From: Dictyostelium discoideum | Lineage: Eukaryota | DNA: 64,000 nucleotides | Reading direction: 5' to 3' | NCBI GenBank assembly: GCA_000004695.1 | Contig: CM000151.3 | Span: forward strand, 2,080,001 to 2,144,000 | Position numbers and translations under genes: made by a program | Notes under the pieces: generated by a model | Databases searched by the model: none | Seen by the model: the letters and a program-made list of their open reading frames with translations, nothing else | Told to the model about the DNA's origin: nothing | Part shown: positions 19,808 to 33,956 of the stretch, piece by piece | Layout: each line of letters begins with the position of its first letter | How positions within the stretch are numbered: position 1 is the first letter of the stretch

Positions 19808-21319
19808 TTAAACCATTGTTACAAGTTCTTCTCTAAATTAATTAATTTATGATTTTTTTGGTTTTTTTTTTTTTTTTTTTTTTTTGGTTAGTATAAATTA
19901 ATATTGGATTTTTTTTAAAAATAAAATTAATAAAATTAATAAAACTTACGCAGATGTTGGATGAATTGCACAAGTATTATCCAAATCCCATTTTGTACAA
20001 CCCATTTTAACAGCAACAGCAAAACCTTGAATAATTTCATCACAACCATCACCAATAATGTGTAAACCAATAACTTTTTCCTCTTTACCTAAACAAACCA
20101 ATTTCATAGAGGTTCTAACTTTATGAACTTGAACTGAATAAAACATATTGATGAATGAGGTATTGTAACATTTGATATTTTCAGTACCATACTTGGTGAT
20201 TGCTTCTTGTTCGGTTAAACCAACGGTACCAATTGGTGGATGAGAGAATACAACAGTTGCAACATTTTCATATTCGAATTTCAAATCGGATTTTCCATTG
20301 AAAAGACGTTCAGAAAGACGACGACCAGCAGCGATTGCAACTGGTGTTAATAAAAAGTTACCACAAATATCACCAACTGCATGGACACCTGGTACATTTG
20401 TATTTTGGAATTCGTCTACTTTAATGAAACCACTTTGTTCTGTCAATTGAATACCAGCCTTGTCAATACCCAAATCATCAGTATTTGGTACACGACCAAT
20501 TGCCCAAATTACACATTCAACTGGTGGTAATTTTACACCTGCGTTTGTGGTGGCAATGATTCTCTTTCCATCGACATCTCTTTCCAATGATTTAATGGAT
20601 GCTTCAGTTACAAATTTGACACCATCGTCAGTCATTTGTTTCAAAAGGGTAGTGTGTAACATTTCATCAAAAGTACGAAGGAATTGTTTTTGACGGATCA
20701 CCATTGTTGTTTCGGAGCCTAATGAATGTAAGACACCAGCCAATTCCACTGCGATATATCCAGCACCGACTACCAATGTTGATTTTGGTAAATCTTCCAA
20801 CTCAAAGAATCCATCTGATGTAATACCCAATTCTTTACCTGGTACATCTGGTACAGTTGGTCTACCACCAGCTGCAATTAAAATATGATCAGCTGTATAC
20901 TTTTCACCGTTGGCACCATTGACTTGAATCTCTTTTGGTCCGCTAAATCTACCATAACCATTGATTCTAACGATATTATCTTTTGCGAGATTTGAGTCAT
21001 AAATTCCATTCAAACGTTTGATATATTCATCACGTGCTTTCTTAATTGTTGGCCAATTGAATTTAACTTGTTGACCACCAAAATCAAAACCATAACTTGG
21101 TGCTGCATTAATCATCTCTTTAATGAATGATGTATTCCACATAACTTTCTTTGGTACACAACCAACATTTACACATGTACCACCTGGTCTTGTTACCTCT
21201 ACAATACCAATACGATCTCCATTACCTTTAGCATTTAAATGTTTTGCTGCTCTTCTTGCTGATGCAATACCACCTGATCCTGCTCCTAAAACTAAATATG
21301 TAAAATGATTTGTTGAACT

Positions 21320-21322
<3 letters not shown>
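19808..21322 (-). CDS. gsr: Glutathione-disulfide reductase. Main exon 19950..21322 plus a 25-nt terminal micro-exon 19808..19832; intron 19833..19949.
   Basis: [26 protein letters not shown]...[13 protein letters not shown] (redox-active CVNVGC) ...HPTSA then GTAAGT donor inside the apparent stop codon. The acceptor TTAATTTAG gives ...EELVTMV*, the canonical GR C-terminus. The symbol follows from the enzyme identity. Confidence 0.85.
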
Positions 21323-22036: not shown

Positions 22037-22926
22037 TTTATTTTTGTTGTTTTTCAGATTTTTCTTGTTCTTTTTGAATTTCTTTTTCAGCTTCAACGAC
22101 AGCAACTAATTTATCAATTTCTTGTTCATCTAATAAAACGATTGGTTGTTTATTTCTAATGACTGCAATTTCAATATTTTTATTTCCACTTTCAACAATC
22201 TCTAATAAAGCTCTAACTGCTAATTTAATTGATTCCTCTTCACTAACGTCTGTATAATTCTTTTCTAAAAATTCACCAACACTCTTTGAACTACGACCAA
22301 TTGCAGCGGCTTTCCATGAACTATAGGATCCAGATGGATCAGTTTGATAAAGATTTGGTGTACCATCTGTATCAAAACCAACAATTAATGTTGAAATACC
22401 AAATGGTCTAACACCACCACTTTGAGTATAACGCTAAATTTATTATTAATTATTAATTTTTTATTTTAAAAGGGAGGAGGGTTGGAAAAGTAAAATAAAA
22501 TAAAATAAAATAAAATTAATATATAAGAAAATTTATAATTTTTATATTAAAAAAAAAAAAAAAACTTACTTGTTGAATACCAGCAATAAATTTAGAAATA
22601 TATTCAACTGATGGTGAATCTTCAACAGTTAATCTATAGGATTGACATTCCATTAATGCTTTACTAATTAATACACGTGAATCGGCAGTTAAACCAGCAA
22701 AGGTTAAACAAATGTGGTCATCTAATTTAACGATTTTTCTAATTGATCTTGCATCTTGAAGTTTAGCGGTTGCTTTCTTTTCAACACCTAAAACAATAAC
22801 ATCTTTACCACGTACACCAACTGCAACAGTACCTTTTCTTACTGCTTCCATGGCATATTCTACTTGAAAAAGATGACCATCTGGTGAGAAAACTGTAATT
22901 GCTCTATCGTATCTTGCACTTGACAT
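22037..22926 (-). CDS. psmA7: 20S proteasome subunit alpha type-7 (alpha4). Exons 22570..22926 and 22037..22433; intron 22434..22569.
   Basis: [33 protein letters not shown]...KFIAGIQQ | [62 protein letters not shown]... is near-identical in pattern to human PSMA7. GTAAGT donor and AATTTAG acceptor. Exon 2 has no start codon, so it is absent from the ORF track. Confidence 0.9.
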
Positions 22927-23929
22927 TATTATGTATTTATATATATATTATATTATTGGAAAAAAAGAAAAAAAAAAAAAAAATTTGGAGTTGATGTGTG
23001 TGTGAGAAATGAAAATTTTAATAAAAAAAAAAAAAAAAAAAAAAAATTAATTTAAAAAAATAAAAAAAAAAAAATTGATTGTGAAGTGCAAAACTTTTTT
23101 TTTTTTTAATTTTTTTAATTTATTTTTTTTTTTTTTTAATTTTTTTTATTTTTTTTTTTTTTTTATTAAAACGGAAAAAATTGAAAAATAAAAAAAAAAT
23201 AATAATAAACAAGATAATATTATTATTATTTCATTATTTATTTATAACTCTTAATTAAATATTTTTCGTTTTTTTATTTATAGTTTTATTAAATTTTAAA
23301 AAAACAAAATAAAAAAAAAAAAAAAAAAAGAAATAAAAAATAATAAAATTTTATTAAAAAAAAAATGAAATAATGAAAAATTATATCACAAAGTAATTAT
23401 TTATTTTGGAAAAAATATCAGGTCAATTTTTTTTATTTTTATTTTTATTTTTATTTTTTTTTTATTTTTTTATTTTTTTATTTTTTTTTTTTTTGATTAG
23501 ATTTACCACCACTCTAATTGATATTCCATTTAAAATAATTTGATAATTTCACTAATCTTTTTTAAATGTTTTTAAAAGATATTATTCAAATGTGTTTAAA
23601 AAAAAAAAATTATTCTCCAATCACACCATTTTCAAAAACACCAATCAGTGGTTTTTCAAAAAAAAAACAAAAAAATTAAATATTTCTATAACATCAAATT
23701 AAAAAATAATAATAATAAAAATTTTAAAAATATAAAAAAAATAATAATAATAATAGTAATACACTTGTAATAATAAAAAAAAAAAAAAAAAAAAAAATTA
23801 TTCTATCTATCTATTTATTAAAAAATAATTAAATTTTATTGTTTATAAACAAGAAATAATTTATGTTGAAAAAATAAAATTTATTCAAAATTTTATTTTC
23901 TTTGTGTATTTTTCAGATCTATTTAAGAT

Positions 23930-24345
23930 CTAAAAATCTAAGGAAAAAGGTTTATTAGCTTGTTGACTTAGAAATATTCTAATAATGATTTCTACGTTAT
24001 CTTTAATCCAAGTACCCTGGGATTCAGGAATATCAAATTCTTTTCCGTTGAATTCAATTTTACCTGATTTTATATGAAATTCCTTTTTGTCCCAAAGCTT
24101 ACCTTCAATTTTGTATTCGGTAAAACTCATAAAATATGGTGTTGGAAGAATACGGGGGGTTGGTGCTGGATGAGCTATATTTTTAAAAAAAGGAAGAGGA
24201 AATTAATGAAATGAAATGTAAGATTTTTAAATTTATATAAATAAAAATTAAATATTTAGAAATTAATAATTTCAATTAATTTACCTTTACCACTTATTGT
24301 TGATTCCCCATCTTCATTAATTAATGTAATTTTCAATTCAGCCAT
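23930..24345 (-). CDS. Small conserved hypothetical protein of about 101 aa, copy 1 of a tandem triplet. Exons 24285..24345 and 23930..24174; intron 24175..24284.
   Basis: [20 protein letters not shown] | [87 protein letters not shown] donor and ATATAG acceptor, phase 1. Confidence 0.75.
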
Positions 24346-25533
24346 TTTAAAATATATTTATTTATTTATTTAAAGTTATAATTTATATTATTTTTTAAAA
24401 AAAAAAGAGAATGTTATTAAATGAAGAAAAAAAAAAAAAAAAAAAAAAACAAAAAGAAAAAGAAAATTAAAAAAATTAATGGTTTTTTCACCCCAATTAT
24501 TATTATAATTTACATATCTCTCTTATATCTCTCTATTAAAAAAAAAAAAAAAAAAATTAAAATTATTTAAAATTGGCAAACTACAAAATCAATTCATCTT
24601 CACTCACCACCAAAACAGTTTTTTTTTTTTTTATCAATTTTTTGAAATTTTTTATTATTTTAATATAAGCTTAAATTAAAAGGTTTTATTATTTACAATT
24701 GTTACTAATTTAATCATGAGTTGGGCAGAGAATGTAATTGCAATAAAACACACATGCAGTTTTTAAAACCTAATTTTAATTTTAATAAATTAGAGTGTTG
24801 GTCTTCTTTTTATGTTCAAAGAACACCAAAAAGTATAAATATTGAATTTCTAATATATTTTTATTAAAATATAATAATTACTAAAAAAATGAGATAATAT
24901 ATAAGAAGGTTATAAATTTTATTAATTATGGTTTTAATAATAAGATGTTTAAAAAATAATAAAATAAATTATAAATTGGAAAAGAATAAATATTGCGAAA
25001 ATTTAAAAAGTATAAATATTGCGAAAAATTTAATAGAATATATTGAAAAAGTTTATGTTTTAAAGGGATTAAAAAACAATGTGGAATTTTCAATATATTT
25101 TTGGTGGAAATTATTTTGATTCTTATATATTTAAATCTTTTTTTTTTATTATTCATATTTTATAAAAAATAACACCCAAATACATTTGCATCATATATGT
25201 TTCTAATTTCTAAATCTGACAGTTCTTCAATTGAATTTTTTATTTTTTATTCTTTATTTTGGGTAAAATAAATTGCTTTATTTTAACATCCAATCAAATT
25301 TCTTTTAAAAAAATAATAAAAAAAAATATCAAAATTAAAATTATTATAAAATGTCCAACTACAATAAATCATCTCAACTCACCACCAAAACAGTTTTTTT
25401 TTTTTTTTTTTTTTTTTGTATCATCCACCATGCATTTATTTTTTAATGGTTTTATTTTTTTTTAATATTTTTAAATAATCAGCTGATAATGAATTAAAAC
25501 CAATAAATAAATAGTCTCTCCAATTAATTTATT

Positions 25534-25566
<33 letters not shown>

Positions 25567-25701
25567 TTTGAGACAAAATTTAAAAATTTTAATCTAAATA
25601 AATAAATTTATAAAATTTTATTCTATATTATATTTATGATGAAAATAAGATTAATGCAAATTTTTTATTTCTTTGTTTTTCATTGTATCTGTTTTTGAGA
25701 T

Positions 25702-26114
25702 CTAAAAATTTTTTTGGAAAATTTTTTTTGGTGGTACAATTAGATGTAAACTAACTTTGATGTGGTTTTCTTCATCATCTTTACTCCATGTGCCTTTAGA
25801 TTCAGTAATATCATATTCTTCTCCGCCGAATTCAATTTTACCTGATTTTATTTGAAAATCATTTTTGTCCCAAAGTTTACCTTCAGTTTTATATTGGATA
25901 AAACAGAAACAATATATTGGAGGAAATATTAGGGGAGCTGGTAATGGATGACCTATATTTTATAAAAAATCCAGAATAAAATGAAATGATATGTTAGATT
26001 TTTAAATATATATAAATAAAATTAAATATTTAGAAATTAATTATTCCAATTACCTTTACCACTTATTGTTGATTCCCCATCTTCATTAACTAATGTAATT
26101 TTCAAATCAGTCAT
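25702..26114 (-). CDS. Copy 2 of the small hypothetical protein family. Exons 26054..26114 and 25702..25952.
   Basis: [20 protein letters not shown] | [83 protein letters not shown]. Same GTAATT/ATATAG junctions as copy 1. Confidence 0.7.
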
Positions 26115-27191
26115 TTTAAAATTTATTATTATTATTATTTATTTATTTTTAAGAGTAATTATATTTAAATTGAATGTTGAAAAAAAATTTTATTAAATAA
26201 TTAAAAAAAAATAAAAAAAAGAAAAAAAAAAATAAAAAAAAAAAAATAAAAAAATTGTTTTTTTTAATAATAAATTATTGTAATTTATATCTCACTTGTA
26301 TCCCCATTAAAAAAAAATAATAAATAAAATAAAATAAAATGACAATCATCTTCACCCCTCCCACAATCAAAACAGTTTTTTTTTTTTTTTTATAAACAGT
26401 TTAAATTAGAGGTTTTATTATTATTTAAAAAAAGTTTATTCTATGTCAATTATTAAACTGATAACAATAATTTGTGATATGGTAATTTGGTGAGTGTTGT
26501 TGATGCTGTAATATATTATTAAAAGATTGAAAATCTTGATTTTTACCAATCATTGAATTTGATTTTCTAAAATTTGCTAAAATCTGACTAGCAAAAAAAA
26601 AAAAAAAAATAATAGAAAAAAAAAAAAATAATTAAAAAAAAAAAATTTGGCGCAAATTTTAAAGTAAATTGTTATTTAATCTTAAAACAATCAAATAACT
26701 GTTTATAAATAGTTTTTTTTATTGTTTTGGTTAAATTAATTGTTTTTAATTTAAAAAAAAAAAAAAAAAAATTTAGTGTGAAAACTCACTACAACAAATC
26801 TGCAAAATTAAAATCAAATAAAACAAATTATAAATAAAACTTTTTGTGGAAAGAATGTAATTGCAATAACTGAATGTTTGGTATAACTATATGATGAATA
26901 ATATTCTCCCATTTCAGAGGAAATGTAAATTATTAAACCTAATATGATGTTGAATTTCTTAATTTCAAAACTCCAAATACATTTGCATCATATATGTTTC
27001 TTATTTATTTAAATGTCAGATAAATTTATCTTATGTTTCCTCAATTGAACAAACAAAACCAAAACCACCTAATACATTTACATCATATATGTTTCTTATT
27101 TATTTAAATGTCAGATAATTAAATTTTAAAAACATAGAAATTATATATGATGAAAAAATAAGATTAATGAAATTTTTTATTTCTTTGTTTT

Positions 27192-27628
27192 CATTGTATC
27201 AGATCTGTTTTAAGATCTTTAATTTTTTGGGAAAAATTTTTCTGGTGGTCTAAATAGATGTAAATTAACATCGATTGCGTTTTCCTCATCATCTTTACTC
27301 CATGTGCCTTTAGATTCAGGAATATCATATTCTTCTCCGTCGAATTCAATTTTACCTGATTTTATTTGAAATTCATTTTTGTCCCAAAGTTTACCTTCAG
27401 TTTGGTATTGGGTAAAACGGAAAATATATATTGGAGGAAATATTAAGGGAGCTGGTAATGGATGACCTATATTTTTAAAAAGAGCCAGAATGAAATGAAA
27501 TGATATGTTAGATTTTTAAATATATATAAATAAAATTAAATATTTAGAAATTAATTATTCCAATTACCTTTACCGCTTATTGTTGATTCCCCATCTTCAT
27601 TAACTAATGTAATTTTCAAATCAACCAT
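27192..27628 (-). pseudogene. Copy 3 of the small protein family, disrupted by a +1 frameshift in exon 2. Exon 1 is 27568..27628; exon 2 starts at 27467.
   Basis: Exon 1 reads [20 protein letters not shown] and is intact. Relative to copy 2, exon 2 has one extra nt in an (AT)n run (ccaatatatattttcccg versus ccaatatattgtttctg). In the frame set by the splice junction this gives [23 protein letters not shown]. The rest ([41 protein letters not shown]...) is conserved but in the +1 frame. Confidence 0.55.
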
Positions 27629-28056
27629 TTTAAAATTTATTATTATTATTTATTTATTTTTAAGAGTAATTATATTTAAATTGAATGAGGAAAAAAAATT
27701 TTATTAAATAATTAAAAAAAAAAAATAAAAAGAAAAAAATAAAAAATAAAAAAAAAAGAAAAAAAAAATTAATTGTTTTATTTTAATAATAAATTATTGT
27801 AATTTATATCTCACTTGTATCCCCATTAAAAAAAAAAATAATAAATAAAACAAAATAAAATGACAATCATCTTCACCCCTCCCCCACAATCAAAACAGTT
27901 TTTTTTTTTTTATCATTCCACCATTTTTTTATAAACAGTTTAAATTAAAGGTTTTATTATTATTTATAAAAAGGTTTATTCTATGTCAAAATGGTGTAAT
28001 GATAAAAAAAAAAAACTGTATTTCCCAAATTAATTTTTTTTTTTTTTTTTTTTTTG

Positions 28057-28162: not shown

Positions 28163-28309
28163 ATGTTAGGTACAAAAAGAAACTTAAGTGATACAAATGA
28201 TATAATTAATGATGAGAATGTAGATAATAATAGTAATGATAATAGCAATAAAAGATTCAAAACAAATTCGATCTCATTTGAAAAGAAATCGAATCCACCA
28301 TCATTATCG

Positions 28310-28353
<44 letters not shown>

Positions 28354-28886
28354 AACATCAACAATACCATTAGGATCACAAAAGCGTATAAATATTACAT
28401 CATTTTCAGGTCACAGAATTACTAGAGTAGTAAAATCTCAAAATAGTGAGAATATTTCAACCTCTTTATCAAAATCAAATATATTATTTAACGATTTATT
28501 AAAGAAACCAATTAATGAAATTTTAGAAGAGATAGAGAATATTGTAAAATATTTTTATTAATATATTTATATTTATATATTATAGTAATAATAATAATTA
28601 TAATAATTATAATACTAATATTTTATTTCTCAGGAATCATTAAAATTAAAATCAGAATTAATTAAAAATTCAAATTCATTAACGCCAACCAAATCAAAAG
28701 GAGTTAGTGAAGAGATAGTAAAGAATAAAGACAATAGATTATGGGTAGATAAATATGCACCAACATCATTTCATGATTTACTTAGTGATACAACTATGAA
28801 TTTAGAAGTACTAAATTGGTTAGAATTATGGGATCATATTGTATTTGATAAACCGTTATCAAAAAATTTAATAATGCCTTCAACTT

Positions 28887-28959
<73 letters not shown>

Positions 28960-29430
28960 TAGTAGTAGTACAGGTGGTGGATATTTTAATAAATTTAATA
29001 GTAAATTTACAACAAGTAGTAATAGTAATCAACAACATCAAAACCAAGGTCAATATTTATTACAAGAGGATGGAACACCAATTGCAAAGATTATACTTTT
29101 AACAGGTGGACCAGGTTTAGGTAAAACCACATTAGCACATGTACTCGCTAAACAAGCCAATTATAATCCAGTGGAAATCAATGCAAGTGAAGATAGATCA
29201 GGTGAAGCATTTGAAAGTAAATTATTATCAGCAATTGAAATGAAATCATTATTCAATGATAATAAACCAAATTGTTTAATTATTGATGAAATTGATGGTA
29301 TTTCAGGTCGTGATAATGGTCCAATTGAATTATTAATTAAATTAATTGATAATAGTTTAAAATTAGGTAATCATAAAAAGTCAACTACAAACCCAGCCGC
29401 TAAAAAATCAGCTGGAAAAGATACAGAATC

Positions 29431-29470
<40 letters not shown>

Positions 29471-31066
29471 CATGAAGACCAAGATGAAGATGATGAAAAA
29501 TCAACAAAAACCAAAGGTAAAAAAGGTAAAAAGAAAGGATTTACAACAAGATTACTTAGACCAATCATTTGTATTTGTAATGATCAATATGTACCATCAT
29601 TAAGAAAACTTAGACAAAAAGCAATGGTATTTGATTTTCAAGCACCAAAGAAAAATGATTTATTATCAAGATTAAAGGTAATTTGTTCAAACGAAGGATT
29701 ATCAGCAACTGATGCAACTTTGAATGCATTAATCGATATGACAGGTAGTGATATTCGTGCGTGTATCAACTCTTTACAATTTATTAAATCAAAAACTACT
29801 GTATTAAATTCAGAATTATTAAAGAATAAATCAAATATTGTAATTGGTCAAAAAGATATGGAAAAAGGTTTAGTTGAAATTTGGAATAATATTTTTAAAA
29901 GTTCAAGTATTACAAGTTCAACTAATAAATTATCAAAATATTCAAATACTATATCATCATCGTCATCATCAATTGATTCTATTAATAGTATTAGTAATGA
30001 TTATTTAAATCAATTAGATTTTCAAATTGGTGCATGTAATCAAGTTGATAAATTAATTGATGGTGTTTATGAAAATTATTTAACAAATATGTCAAGTGAT
30101 TATACAATGCAGAAAACAATGGATTGTTTGGATTGGATGGTATTTGGTGATCAAATGTTAAATGTTCATGCTGATGAAAAGTATCGTTCTCTAGTTCCAT
30201 TGGCAATTCATCAACGTTGTTCAACTTATTCACCAAAGATACAATTACCTCATTCCGATTATGATAATTTCATTAAAAAGAAATCAAACTCAAATATTAA
30301 AGATTCCTTTTACTCAGATTTACCAGCCACAATCTATTCTTATCTTACAAAGAAATGCTTTGTCATTGATTTCATTTACCCATTTGTTGATATACTTTCC
30401 TTACCAGTACGTGTTACAAATGTTCAATTGTATAGCCAAACAGAGAAAACCAATTTAAATCGTTTGGTTGAAATTATGAAATTCTATAGATTATCTTATA
30501 AGTTGGAAAAAGTAAATAATTTTATCAAACAACAACATCAACCACAAAAAAAATTAGTTGATAGTCTGGATGAAAAAGATGATGAAGAATTACAACGTAA
30601 TAAAAAACAACAAAATCAACAAACTCAAGATATAACAATGCAATATAAATTGGAACCACCTATTGATACTTTATTATATTTTCAAAATCAAAATCCAAAA
30701 ACTATGGTAAAACATATTCGATTATCTCATAGTCAAAAACAAATTATTTCTACAGCTGTACAACAATATAAACCACCTCAAAAATCAACTACTACCACCG
30801 CCACCGACACCACCACTACTGTTAAAAATGATGAAAATCAAAAACAAAAAGATCAATTGAAAAAACCAATACCAACAAAAGAAGAATTCAAAAAACCTTT
30901 GGTACCAACAGTTTTAAAAGATTTCTTTGGTAGAGTCATTCAAACATCACCAGAAACTAAAAAGAAAACTATGGAAGCAACAGCTGGTCCAAATATTAAA
31001 TATAGATTCCAAGAAGGTTTTACAAATGCTGTTAAGAAAACAGTGTATGTAAAAGATTTCTTGTAA
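28163..31066 (+). CDS. ctf18: Chromosome transmission fidelity protein 18 (CTF18), an RFC-like AAA+ ATPase of the alternative clamp loader. Exons 28163..28543 and 28634..31066; intron 28544..28633.
   Basis: ...DNRLWVDKYAPTSFHDLLSDTTMNLEVLNWLELWDHIVF (Ctf18 signature) ...IILLTGGPGLGKTTLAHVLAKQANYNPVEINASEDRS (Walker A) ...CLIIDEIDGI (Walker B). GTAAAA donor after ...EEIENI and TTTCTCAG acceptor, in frame with ORF 28796..31066. Confidence 0.85.
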
Positions 31067-31170: not shown

Positions 31171-33956
31171 TTATTTATCAAATGAATAATTTGGATGTAT
31201 AATTAATATTCTATGATCAGGATATTGATTTGGTACTAATACAACAAGAGAATTGTCTTTGTTTATCATTTTATTGATAACCATTTTAGTGATTTTAGTT
31301 TCTTTTGTAACTTCATCATCAGTGATTATGCCAGACTCCAATTGATCTTTAATGTACCAATCGATAAGATCAATTTGTTTTATACCAGATTTCTCTTTTC
31401 CTGATTGTTTAATTTGTAAAACTAATAATTTTGATAATTGTGAATATTTTGAAAAATTCATAGTTAATTTGCCAATACCATCATCACCATCTTCTTCAGC
31501 ATGGTTATCGTTATCATTTTCAACATTTTTGACTAAATCATCATCATCATCACCTAAAATTACATCATTTGTTTCAACATGAACTATTGATTTCTCTAAT
31601 AATCTTGCAGCTTCATTTACATATTTTGGTAAAACTTTTGTATCTAAATGTAAACGAGCCAATGATTCCGATAAACGAACTAATGATTCCAATTGTCTAA
31701 CTGTGATTCTGTATGCTGGAGTTTTTGAACCACTGGTATCCATTTGACGTAATCTATCGTAATGTCCCACCAATAGTTGTACACTTTCATCTGGAATGGT
31801 TGGACAAATGAATTTTGTATACTTTATATAGTTTTTAATTTCAGTTGCAGAGAATGGTGCGTTGAATGCTTTTTCACGTTTTTGATGAGTCAACACGATA
31901 TGCTCTGCTATTCTATGATCAGATTCTGGATTACATTCATCCAATACCACAAAGAATAAATCGAAACGTGACATTAGTGGACCACCAATATTTAAATTTT
32001 GTTTTAAAGTTTTATTACGATCATAACGACCACCAATTGGATTTGCTGCTGCTAAAATACTAGTACGAGCATTCAATGATGCATGAATACCCGCCTTTGC
32101 AATGGAAATGGTTTGTTGTTCCATTGCTTCATGAATTGCAACTTGGTCACCTGGCTCCATTTTATCAAATTCATCAATACAACAAATACCATTATCTGCC
32201 AACATCAATGCACCTGCTTCAATATTAAAATCACCACTTTCTTGATCCTTTACAACTGTTGCCGTTAAACCTGCTGCACTACTTGCTTTACCAGATGTAT
32301 AAACTGTACGTGGTAAAAATGATACTAAATACTTTAAAAATGTACTCTTTGATGTTGATGGATCACCAACAATACAAACATTAATATCACCTCTTAATCT
32401 AATCTTTTCTGGTGTTTTCTTATGTACACCACCAAATAACATTAATAATACTCCTCTTTTAACTAAAATAAATAAATTAATAAATTAATAATTTTTTAAA
32501 TAAATATCTATATAAATTATTATTATAAATTATTATTATTATACTTTACTTTCTTCATGACCAAAAATTGAAGGACAAATTGAATTTACTAAATTTTGAT
32601 AAATTTTTTTACTTTTAATCATTTTCTTTAAACTATCTTTTTCTTTTTTTGGTAAAGAATCTAAAAAGGATTCTTTTGATTCAGGTTCTAAATCTTCATC
32701 AATGATACCAACTGAATGAGAATGACCACCATGATTATCACCAGATTCTTTACGATTGATTGAGGAAAGTGTTGAAACATTTGAACGAACACTTTGAGAG
32801 AAGAAACAAACTCTATAATTCATTTCTCTAACACCTAAATCTTTTAAACCACCAACACCACCAAAATCATCCTTACCATTTGCATTTGAACCTTCCTTTG
32901 TGCTCGATGCTACACCCTTGATAATTTGAGCATTATTACCAATGGACATTTTAGAAACATCTGGAATTACATTCATCGTACCAACAAATGTACATGTATC
33001 ACCAGCTCTAGCGGTTTCAACCGAATCACCACGTAGAATGATCTCTAATGATCTTGGTACGCTACCACCTGGAATTTCGGAATTGTTTTCTTGAACTCTA
33101 ACTTTTTGCCAATCAGTGAATGTCGACTCCTCTAAATTTATCTTCCAACGACGTTGATTTGAACATAACGGATTCAAACATTTGGTTGGTTCTGTATATT
33201 TAAATTGTTGGGCTATTGGTAACGATGAGGTATTACAATCCTTACAAATGAATGACCCAATAACCAACTCTGGTCTAACCTCTGACGTTCTCGTTACTGT
33301 ACCCGATATAGAACATAATGATCCTATCCTACTTGATCTAAGTTCTCTAATATGTACAAACGTTGAAACATTATAACAACAAATTGATAATACTATCCTT
33401 TCTTTATTAACTCTCTCCATAAATGATGGAAAATATTTTTGTATAAAAATTGATAATCCTTGTCTTATCGCTGGTTCTAATCTAATATTTATATAATTTT
33501 ATAATTAATTTAAATTCAACCAATTTTTTTTTTTTTTTTTTTTTTTCCTTTTTTTTTTTTTTTTTTTAAATCATACCTAAAATATTCCATTAATAATGCT
33601 TTTCCTAAACCTTTATCAAATTTCTCTAAATGTAAGAAATCTATATATAAACTTGATTTATCATTTTTTATCATTCTTTCAACTTGTTGACGATAATAAC
33701 TTTTATCTATTTTCTCTTTTTTAATACCATTTTCGTCATATTCATTTTCATTTTCATTATTATCTTCATTATCTTCATTATTATTATTATTATTATTTTT
33801 ATCAATTTTTTTTTTTAATTTAAAATTATTTAAAAATTCTAAAAATTTATTTTTTGTCCATTCTTTTGCTTCATCTTGTACCTTTTGAAATTGATGTGTT
33901 TGATTTGGTCTTATTGTTGCTTTATCTTCATCAACTCCAGCATCTGTATATATCAT
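31171..33956 (-). CDS. mcm6: DNA replication licensing factor MCM6. Exons 33577..33956, 32550..33481 and 31171..32462; introns 33482..33576 and 32463..32549.
   Basis: The N-terminus is ...FQKVQDEAKEWTKNKFLEFL...LLMEYF. It continues RLEPAIRQGLSIF..., the zinc finger CKDC...CLNPLC, ...IFGHEE | IKRGVLLMLFGGVHKK, Walker A GDPSTSKS, IDEFDKM, and an arginine finger SRFDLFF. The C-terminus VLPKYVNEAARLLEKSIVHVE...HPNYSFDK matches MCM6-specific tails. Donors GTATGA and GTAAAG, phases consistent. Confidence 0.9.

Follow-up and report, generated by a model that had tools for sequence, protein, structure and literature searches.

The DNA considered here, called the window in what follows, is a stretch of 64,000 nucleotides of Dictyostelium discoideum (contig CM000151.3 of assembly GCA_000004695.1, positions 2,080,001 to 2,144,000). 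It is extremely AT-rich, with 16–31% GC per 2-kb bin. Within it, three tandem, head-to-tail, two-exon genes lie on the minus strand. These are csbC, csbB, and csbA, also referred to below as copies 1, 2, and 3.

The csbC-csbB-csbA array

The segment 23700–27900 was read on the minus strand, and the copies were spliced at common junctions, ...GGTAAAG/GTAA... and ...ATATAG/. In all three copies, exon 1 consists of 61 nt, that is, 20 codons plus one nucleotide, the GT..AG intron is in phase 1, and the reading frame is open after splicing and translation (Table 1). When the region was compared with itself by blastn, units 2 and 3 (25627–26449 vs. 27140–27989) were found to be 90.2% identical over 860 nt, with E = 0. 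Unit 1 is 79% identical to unit 2 (23989–24563 vs. 25767–26335) and to unit 3 (23999–24636 vs. 27291–27915), over 590–658 nt and with E values of 1e-108 to 1e-114. The likeness between the three units is far beyond chance. A tblastn search with the three proteins as queries found exactly three csb coding copies in the window. The triplication described in a first-pass annotation, made from the sequence alone, is thus borne out by splicing, blastn, and tblastn, as are the shared 20-codon first exon, the intron of about 100 nt, and the conserved second exon. The divergent C-termini that it mentioned are also there, the last 20 or so residues being different. It placed copies 1 and 2 at exactly the right coordinates; the coding sequence of copy 3 ends at 27219 instead of 27192.

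The translations identify the genes. The product of copy 1 is 100% identical over its full length to “Contact site B protein C” (CsbC, P0007), that of copy 2 is likewise identical to “Glycoprotein 24B / contact site B protein” (CsbB, P0001), and that of copy 3 matches “Glycoprotein 24A” (CsbA, P0002) residue for residue over the full length, all three being proteins of D. discoideum AX4 encoded on a contig of 8,484,197 bp. Each product matches the Pfam family PF05720 (Dicty_CAD, “cell-cell adhesion domain”) over profile positions 1–80 or 1–82 of 82, with scores of 131 bits (E 1.6e-38), 125.5 bits (E 8e-37), and 136.7 bits (E 2.6e-40) for copies 1, 2, and 3, respectively, the gathering cut-off being 23 bits. 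In comparison with the known csbA (gp24A), csbB (gp24B), and csbC, the tandem arrangement is the same, and there is no difference at the sequence level. Given this identity to the AX4 proteins and the neighboring genes, we conclude, with a probability of about 0.93, that the region is the csbC-csbB-csbA locus on chromosome 2 of D. discoideum AX4. Its three intact paralogues encode single-domain, all-β proteins of about 11.7 kDa that belong to the dictyostelid-specific Dicty_CAD family and have a proposed role in early cohesion. The locus is already known, its genes being named, expressed, and placed in a Pfam family. The csbA and csbB genes were reportedly described as a tandem gp24 gene pair by Loomis and Fuller in 1990. 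Hence the view that these are genes of unknown function without a homologue does not hold, as they have names, a Pfam family, and published expression and mutant data.

Copy 3 had been described as frameshifted by one extra nucleotide in an (AT)4 run early in exon 2, which would place the conserved remainder out of frame and create a premature TGA. In a three-way DNA alignment of the units made with MAFFT, copies 2 and 3 run gap-free through exon 2, starting at its first base, until the final few codons. At the disputed site, copy 2 reads CCAATATATTGTTTCTG and copy 3 reads CCAATATATATTTTCCG, and the lengths are equal. The longer AT run of copy 3 comes from a TG-to-AT substitution, which changes the TGT codon of Cys35 to ATT for Ile, with no insertion. 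When copy 3 is spliced at the homologous junction and translated, the result is an uninterrupted open reading frame of 102 codons ending in TAA at 27219–27221, with no premature TGA in frame. The sole length difference between the csbA and csbB coding sequences is at the very end, where csbA stops one codon earlier (AAA AAT TAA vs. AAA AAT TTT TAG).

The alternative that the array is an uncharacterised gene family whose third copy became a pseudogene through a +1 slip has in its favor that copy 3 has ATATATAT where copy 2 has ATATATTG. Since the two stretches are equally long, the difference is a substitution, not an insertion. Neither a frameshift nor a premature stop is found in copy 3 relative to its intact paralogues, from its open reading frame and its alignment with copy 2, and the open frame yields the annotated CsbA protein. 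Furthermore, csbA transcription and transcripts have been reported (PMC10730084, PMC12750705), the former imaged live at the endogenous locus (PMC10730084). We regard the pseudogene explanation as having practically no chance of being correct. The copy 3 frameshift does not exist, and the claim was a reading error.

A palindromic hexamer, AGATCT, stands at or just past the stop codon of each AX4 gene (23920–23940, 25692–25710, and 27200–27225, minus strand). In csbC and csbA, as well as in the copy of the related assembly L001 (L001 7040–7070), a second AGATCT follows after another 5–10 nt (AGATCTGA). csbB has AGATAC, a decayed form, in place of the second hexamer. To judge from its sequence, the AGATCT pair would be a conserved motif of the 3′ untranslated region, able to form a short hairpin.

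Table 1. Coordinates of the csb genes, the upstream G-rich elements, and the flanking reading frames in the window.
Feature	Position	Strand	Description
csbC (copy 1)	23930..24345	-	exon 1 24285-24345; intron 24175-24284, 110 nt; exon 2 23930-24174 including TAG stop; 101 amino acids
csbB / gp24B (copy 2)	25702..26114	-	exon 1 26054-26114; intron 25953-26053, 101 nt; exon 2 25702-25952 including TAG stop; 103 amino acids
csbA / gp24A (copy 3)	27219..27628	-	exon 1 27568-27628; intron 27467-27567, 101 nt; exon 2 27219-27466 including TAA stop; 102 amino acids
csbC-type G-rich element (ACTGTTTTGGTGGTGAGTGAAGATGA)	24594..24619	-	after A-run; starts 274 nt upstream of csbC ATG
csbC-type element, orphan copy	25369..25394	-	between csbC and csbB; no csb coding sequence downstream
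csbA/B-type G-rich element (ACTGTTTTGATTGTGGGAGGGGTGAAGATGA)	26346..26376	-	starts 262 nt upstream of csbB ATG; repeat family D16
csbA/B-type G-rich element	27867..27899	-	starts 271 nt upstream of csbA ATG; repeat family D16; same element in L001 and L002
Pyridine-nucleotide disulphide oxidoreductase	19946-21322	-	flanking open reading frame
Proteasome alpha subunit	22516-22926	-	flanking open reading frame
RFC1-like AAA ATPase	28796-31066	+	flanking open reading frame; probably multi-exon, 5′ exon at 28163-28561
MCM6	31171-33420 (neighboring-gene span 31171-33956)	-	flanking open reading frame

Relatives and evolution of the array

A search of 5.8 billion proteins found nine relatives, all from Dictyostelium, and these include the three identical AX4 proteins. 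An exhaustive HMMER scan of 1.84 billion representatives gave only 12 matches, and the credible ones are all dictyostelid, coming from D. dimigraforme, D. citrinum, lineages labelled “D. discoideum”, and Cavenderia fasciculata. The metagenomic proteins P0019–P0021 were rejected as relatives. They are long proteins with weak matches in multiple stretches and no individually significant domain, and they also match many unrelated Pfam families weakly, which points to repetitive or compositional noise. The Dicty_CAD domain is shared by staC of D. discoideum, which differs in being a stalk marker of unknown function, and by the homologues of C. fasciculata. One of the latter differs in architecture: P0017 (DFA_03076, 461 amino acids) has an N-terminal Kelch region and a C-terminal Dicty_CAD domain, the only multi-domain context seen. 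In L001 and in a second related assembly, L002, the csb arrays are flanked by the same neighbors as in AX4, that is, the oxidoreductase, the proteasome alpha subunit, the RFC1-like AAA ATPase, and MCM6, so that synteny is conserved; these genes served solely as synteny anchors.

Compared part by part, the DNA of csbA and csbB is 97% identical upstream, 95% identical in both exon 1 and the intron, and only 90% identical in exon 2. With about 90% identity that includes the promoter and the intron, csbA and csbB are the younger pair. Nonsynonymous (dN) and synonymous (dS) divergence and their ratio, ω, were calculated by the method of Nei and Gojobori, which gave an ω of 1.16 for csbA vs. csbB. 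When the AX4 csb copies are paired with their closest copies in L001 and L002, orthology being uncertain inside a birth-and-death array, dS is 0.02–0.20, dN is 0.10–0.18, and ω is 0.9–2.3. In contrast, MCM6, the oxidoreductase, and RFC1, compared between AX4 and L001, have a dS of 0.07–0.12, a dN of 0.008–0.014, and an ω of 0.07–0.20. That is, the dS of the csb genes is in the range of that of the flanks, whereas their dN is 10–20 times higher, and the contrast in nonsynonymous to synonymous differences between csb genes and flanks gives Fisher p values of 1e-5 to 5e-11. The excess of ω over 1 is not significant for these short genes (p 0.05–0.4). At the protein level, Csb identity between AX4 and L001 or L002 is 45–80%, as against 96–100% for the flanking housekeeping proteins, the flanks having been compared with both assemblies over 19946–21322, 28796–31066, and 31171–32442. 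What can safely be said is that the Csb proteins change at a roughly neutral rate, with 30 invariant columns in their alignment. This could reflect diversifying selection acting on a portion of the protein, or else weak constraint.

The arrays also vary in copy number, with three csb copies in L001 and about seven in L002, two of them fragments. Given the ω values of the csb genes relative to those of the flanks, the greater divergence of exon 2 than of the intron or promoter, the change from three to about seven copies, the fragments, an orphan promoter, and local inversions, csb may be a fast-evolving birth-and-death family instead of a set of ordinary housekeeping adhesion genes, a reading that we regard as rather doubtful.

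Several details of the related arrays may be added. In L001 (6600–11100), the three copies are inverted relative to the flanks, and the csbA/B-type upstream element (see below) keeps the AX4 orientation and is orphaned beside RFC1. In L002 (7590–16400), the csbA/B-type upstream element is inverted in place, in an array of about seven copies or fragments. A csbA/B-like copy at L001 6635–7043, which is not annotated as a gene, reads TTGAAATTACA where AX4 reads TTGAAAATTACA; its exon 1 A-run is 1 nt shorter and its frame broken, with exon 2 intact. Either the copy is a genuine pseudogene, or the assembly has a homopolymer error here. The annotated product P0004 looks like a chimera of two neighboring copies.

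Upstream elements and repeats

Each csb gene is preceded on the minus strand by a conserved G-rich element that follows an A-run (Table 1). The element begins with ACTGTTTTG(G/A)T(G/T)GTG and ends with GA(A/G)GATGA; in short form, it is an A-run followed by CTGTTTTGRTKGTG...GARGATGA. On its gene-ward side are a TATA-like GAGATATAAATTA and long T-runs. A 15-mer of the element occurs four times in the window, where 0.01 occurrences would be expected, and the element is kept, in two subtypes, upstream of the csb copies in L001 and L002. We suggest that it is probably a cis-regulatory site. The block that contains the orphan csbC-type copy is 86% identical to the csbC upstream block over 98 nt (25314–25407 vs. 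24537–24632, blastn), and tblastn across the window found no csb coding remnant near it. Probably, the orphan is what is left of a fourth unit that has been lost.

Because the opposite strand carries a DUSE-like CCCACAA, the upstream segment was considered as a small non-coding RNA gene. This candidate is unsupported: no RNA gene was found by Rfam, at the gathering threshold on the whole window and at E ≤ 5 on the locus, or by ARAGORN. A 26-nt repeat, AGAAACATATATGATGYAAATGTATT, occurs on the minus strand at 25179–25204, 26976–27001, and 27071–27096, in the csb locus only, with none expected by chance; two of its copies are downstream of csbA, and one is downstream of the orphan promoter element. 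No exact match to it is found in L001 or L002. A scan of the csb locus for inverted repeats was dominated by poly-A and poly-T tracts and was uninformative.

The Csb fold, the gp24 name, and a proposed role in early cohesion

The published work places the genes in early development, as follows. csbA “encodes a cell adhesion protein” and is a post-“jump” gene, whose nascent transcription at the endogenous locus was imaged only in aggregating cells; post-jump genes need cyclic AMP (cAMP) signaling, and csbC is the one gene that keeps some induction without it (PMC10730084). Chronic hypoxia raises csbA, csbB, and csbC transcripts and CsbC protein (PMC12750705), and chimeric aggregates show up-regulation of both csbA and csbC (PMC4118049). 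csbB has been tracked by quantitative PCR under the name “12 kDa protein / contact site B” (PMC2920877). CsbC protein is early developmentally regulated and “has not been further characterized” (PMC6830349). When csbA, csbB, and csbC are all lacking, the cells produce markedly fewer aggregates (PMC5735089, citing Xu et al. 1996). These are, then, cAMP-dependent aggregation-stage genes with an uncharacterised biochemistry, and not genes of unknown function.

CsbA, CsbB, and CsbC are acidic proteins of 11.6–11.8 kDa. Sequence analysis found no hydrophobic N-terminus or signal peptide in them and no segment near transmembrane hydropathy, nor is there an N-X-S/T sequon in any of them. AlphaFold2 models of CsbB and CsbC, with mean confidence scores (pLDDT) of 88.8 and 91.6, are all-β with eight strands; both models rest on one shallow alignment of nine sequences. 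A sequence match in the Protein Data Bank (PDB) was found neither for CsbB alone nor for the nine-sequence Csb profile at E ≤ 10, and Foldseek gave nothing below E 0.1 against the PDB.

The models may have some likeness to the fold of Hcp, of the type VI secretion system (T6SS), and of phage tail-tube proteins. This raises the possibility that Csb proteins are Hcp- or tail-tube-like modules assembling with themselves into rings or stacks, in which case the dictyostelids would have domesticated a fold of bacteria or phages. Any likeness lies in the grey zone (Z < 8, with 4–14% identity), and PilZ and FMN-binding split barrels score nearly as high, so that the fold may be a generic small β-barrel. 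Foldseek, with its best E at 0.1, lends this idea no match in the PDB, and no match to Hcp or tail-tube profiles (T6SS_HCP, tail-tube PHROGs) was found at E ≤ 1 in Pfam, PHROGs, and NCBIfam. The two models, moreover, come from the same shallow alignment. A typical Hcp is about 60 residues longer than Csb, and the Csb family, unlike T6SS Hcp and the phage tail-tube, is eukaryotic and restricted to dictyostelids; ring assembly of Csb is hypothetical. We consider a domesticated tail-tube module very improbable.

Our proposal is that the Csb proteins, which have no signal peptide, transmembrane segment, or sequon, would come to the cell surface or cortex, or act there, by a non-classical route. 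They would thereby help starving cells to achieve their early, EDTA-sensitive (“contact sites B”) cohesion. A precedent for non-classical export is provided by DdCAD-1 (cadA; PDB 1YHP, 2B1O), a 24-kDa, Ca2+-dependent adhesion molecule that lacks a signal peptide, yet gets to the surface through contractile vacuoles (PMC2138044). Like Csb, DdCAD-1 bears the label of early EDTA-sensitive adhesion and is the product of an early developmental gene.

Three points weigh against this reading. First, the 24-kDa, EDTA-sensitive adhesion molecule gp24 is now attributed to DdCAD-1 (PMC2138044, PMC2173991). Second, the two proteins do not match. DdCAD-1 carries the Pfam domains Crystall_3 (PF08964) and Membrane_bind (PF14564), without PF05720, whereas Csb matches PF05720 only and neither the N-terminal PF08964 nor the C-terminal PF14564 of the DdCAD-1 / Cad family. 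An hhalign alignment of Csb with DdCAD-1 has a probability of 0.3%, and DdCAD-1 is absent among the fold neighbors listed for Csb. The DdCAD-1 query sequence was checked against PDB 1YHP/2B1O (E 7e-146, identical over residues 2–213). Third, “glycoprotein” is a name that poorly fits a 12-kDa product without a sequon or signal peptide. Csb and DdCAD-1 are two unrelated families under one functional label, and the database name “glycoprotein 24” for Csb is probably a historical misassignment.

These points can be taken further. It may be that the genes are csbA, csbB, and csbC, as we conclude, and that their products are not themselves the adhesion molecules. In that case, they would be small cytosolic or secreted β-barrels induced together at aggregation, the label of “gp24 / contact site B” would go back to a historical misassignment, the true gp24 would be DdCAD-1, and the mutant phenotype would be indirect. 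The field's equation of gp24 with DdCAD-1, the lack of any relation between Csb and DdCAD-1 in sequence profile, Pfam, and fold search, the lack of export and glycosylation signals, the mass of 12 instead of 24 kDa, and the scant characterization of CsbC all favor it. However, a reduced number of aggregates is reported for cells mutant in all three csb genes, and the surface-located DdCAD-1 is itself without a signal peptide, so the lack of one does not exclude a surface role. On balance, we hold misassignment of this kind to be unlikely, albeit a serious contender, and we retain the csb locus with a proposed role of its products in early cohesion.

It is tempting to go beyond this and to combine the possible fast-evolving, birth-and-death nature of the tandem family with a predicted Hcp- or tail-tube-like barrel unrelated to DdCAD-1. 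Together, these might fit a diversifying, self-associating recognition or adhesion module behind the “gp24” label. We offer this proposal as speculative and rather doubtful.

As a finding, the locus matters little, being a named gene cluster of a model organism in which the claimed frameshift was a reading error. The side points would be relevant to those who study early adhesion in Dictyostelium, or its kin recognition. Calling the csb genes “gp24 / contact site B” clashes with gp24 having later been assigned to DdCAD-1, an unrelated protein; the Csb fold, possibly an Hcp-like barrel, is without a solved relative; and the near-neutral evolution and changing copy number of the csb genes are set against strongly constrained neighbors. 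These points, together with the upstream element and its orphan copy, are leads rather than results.

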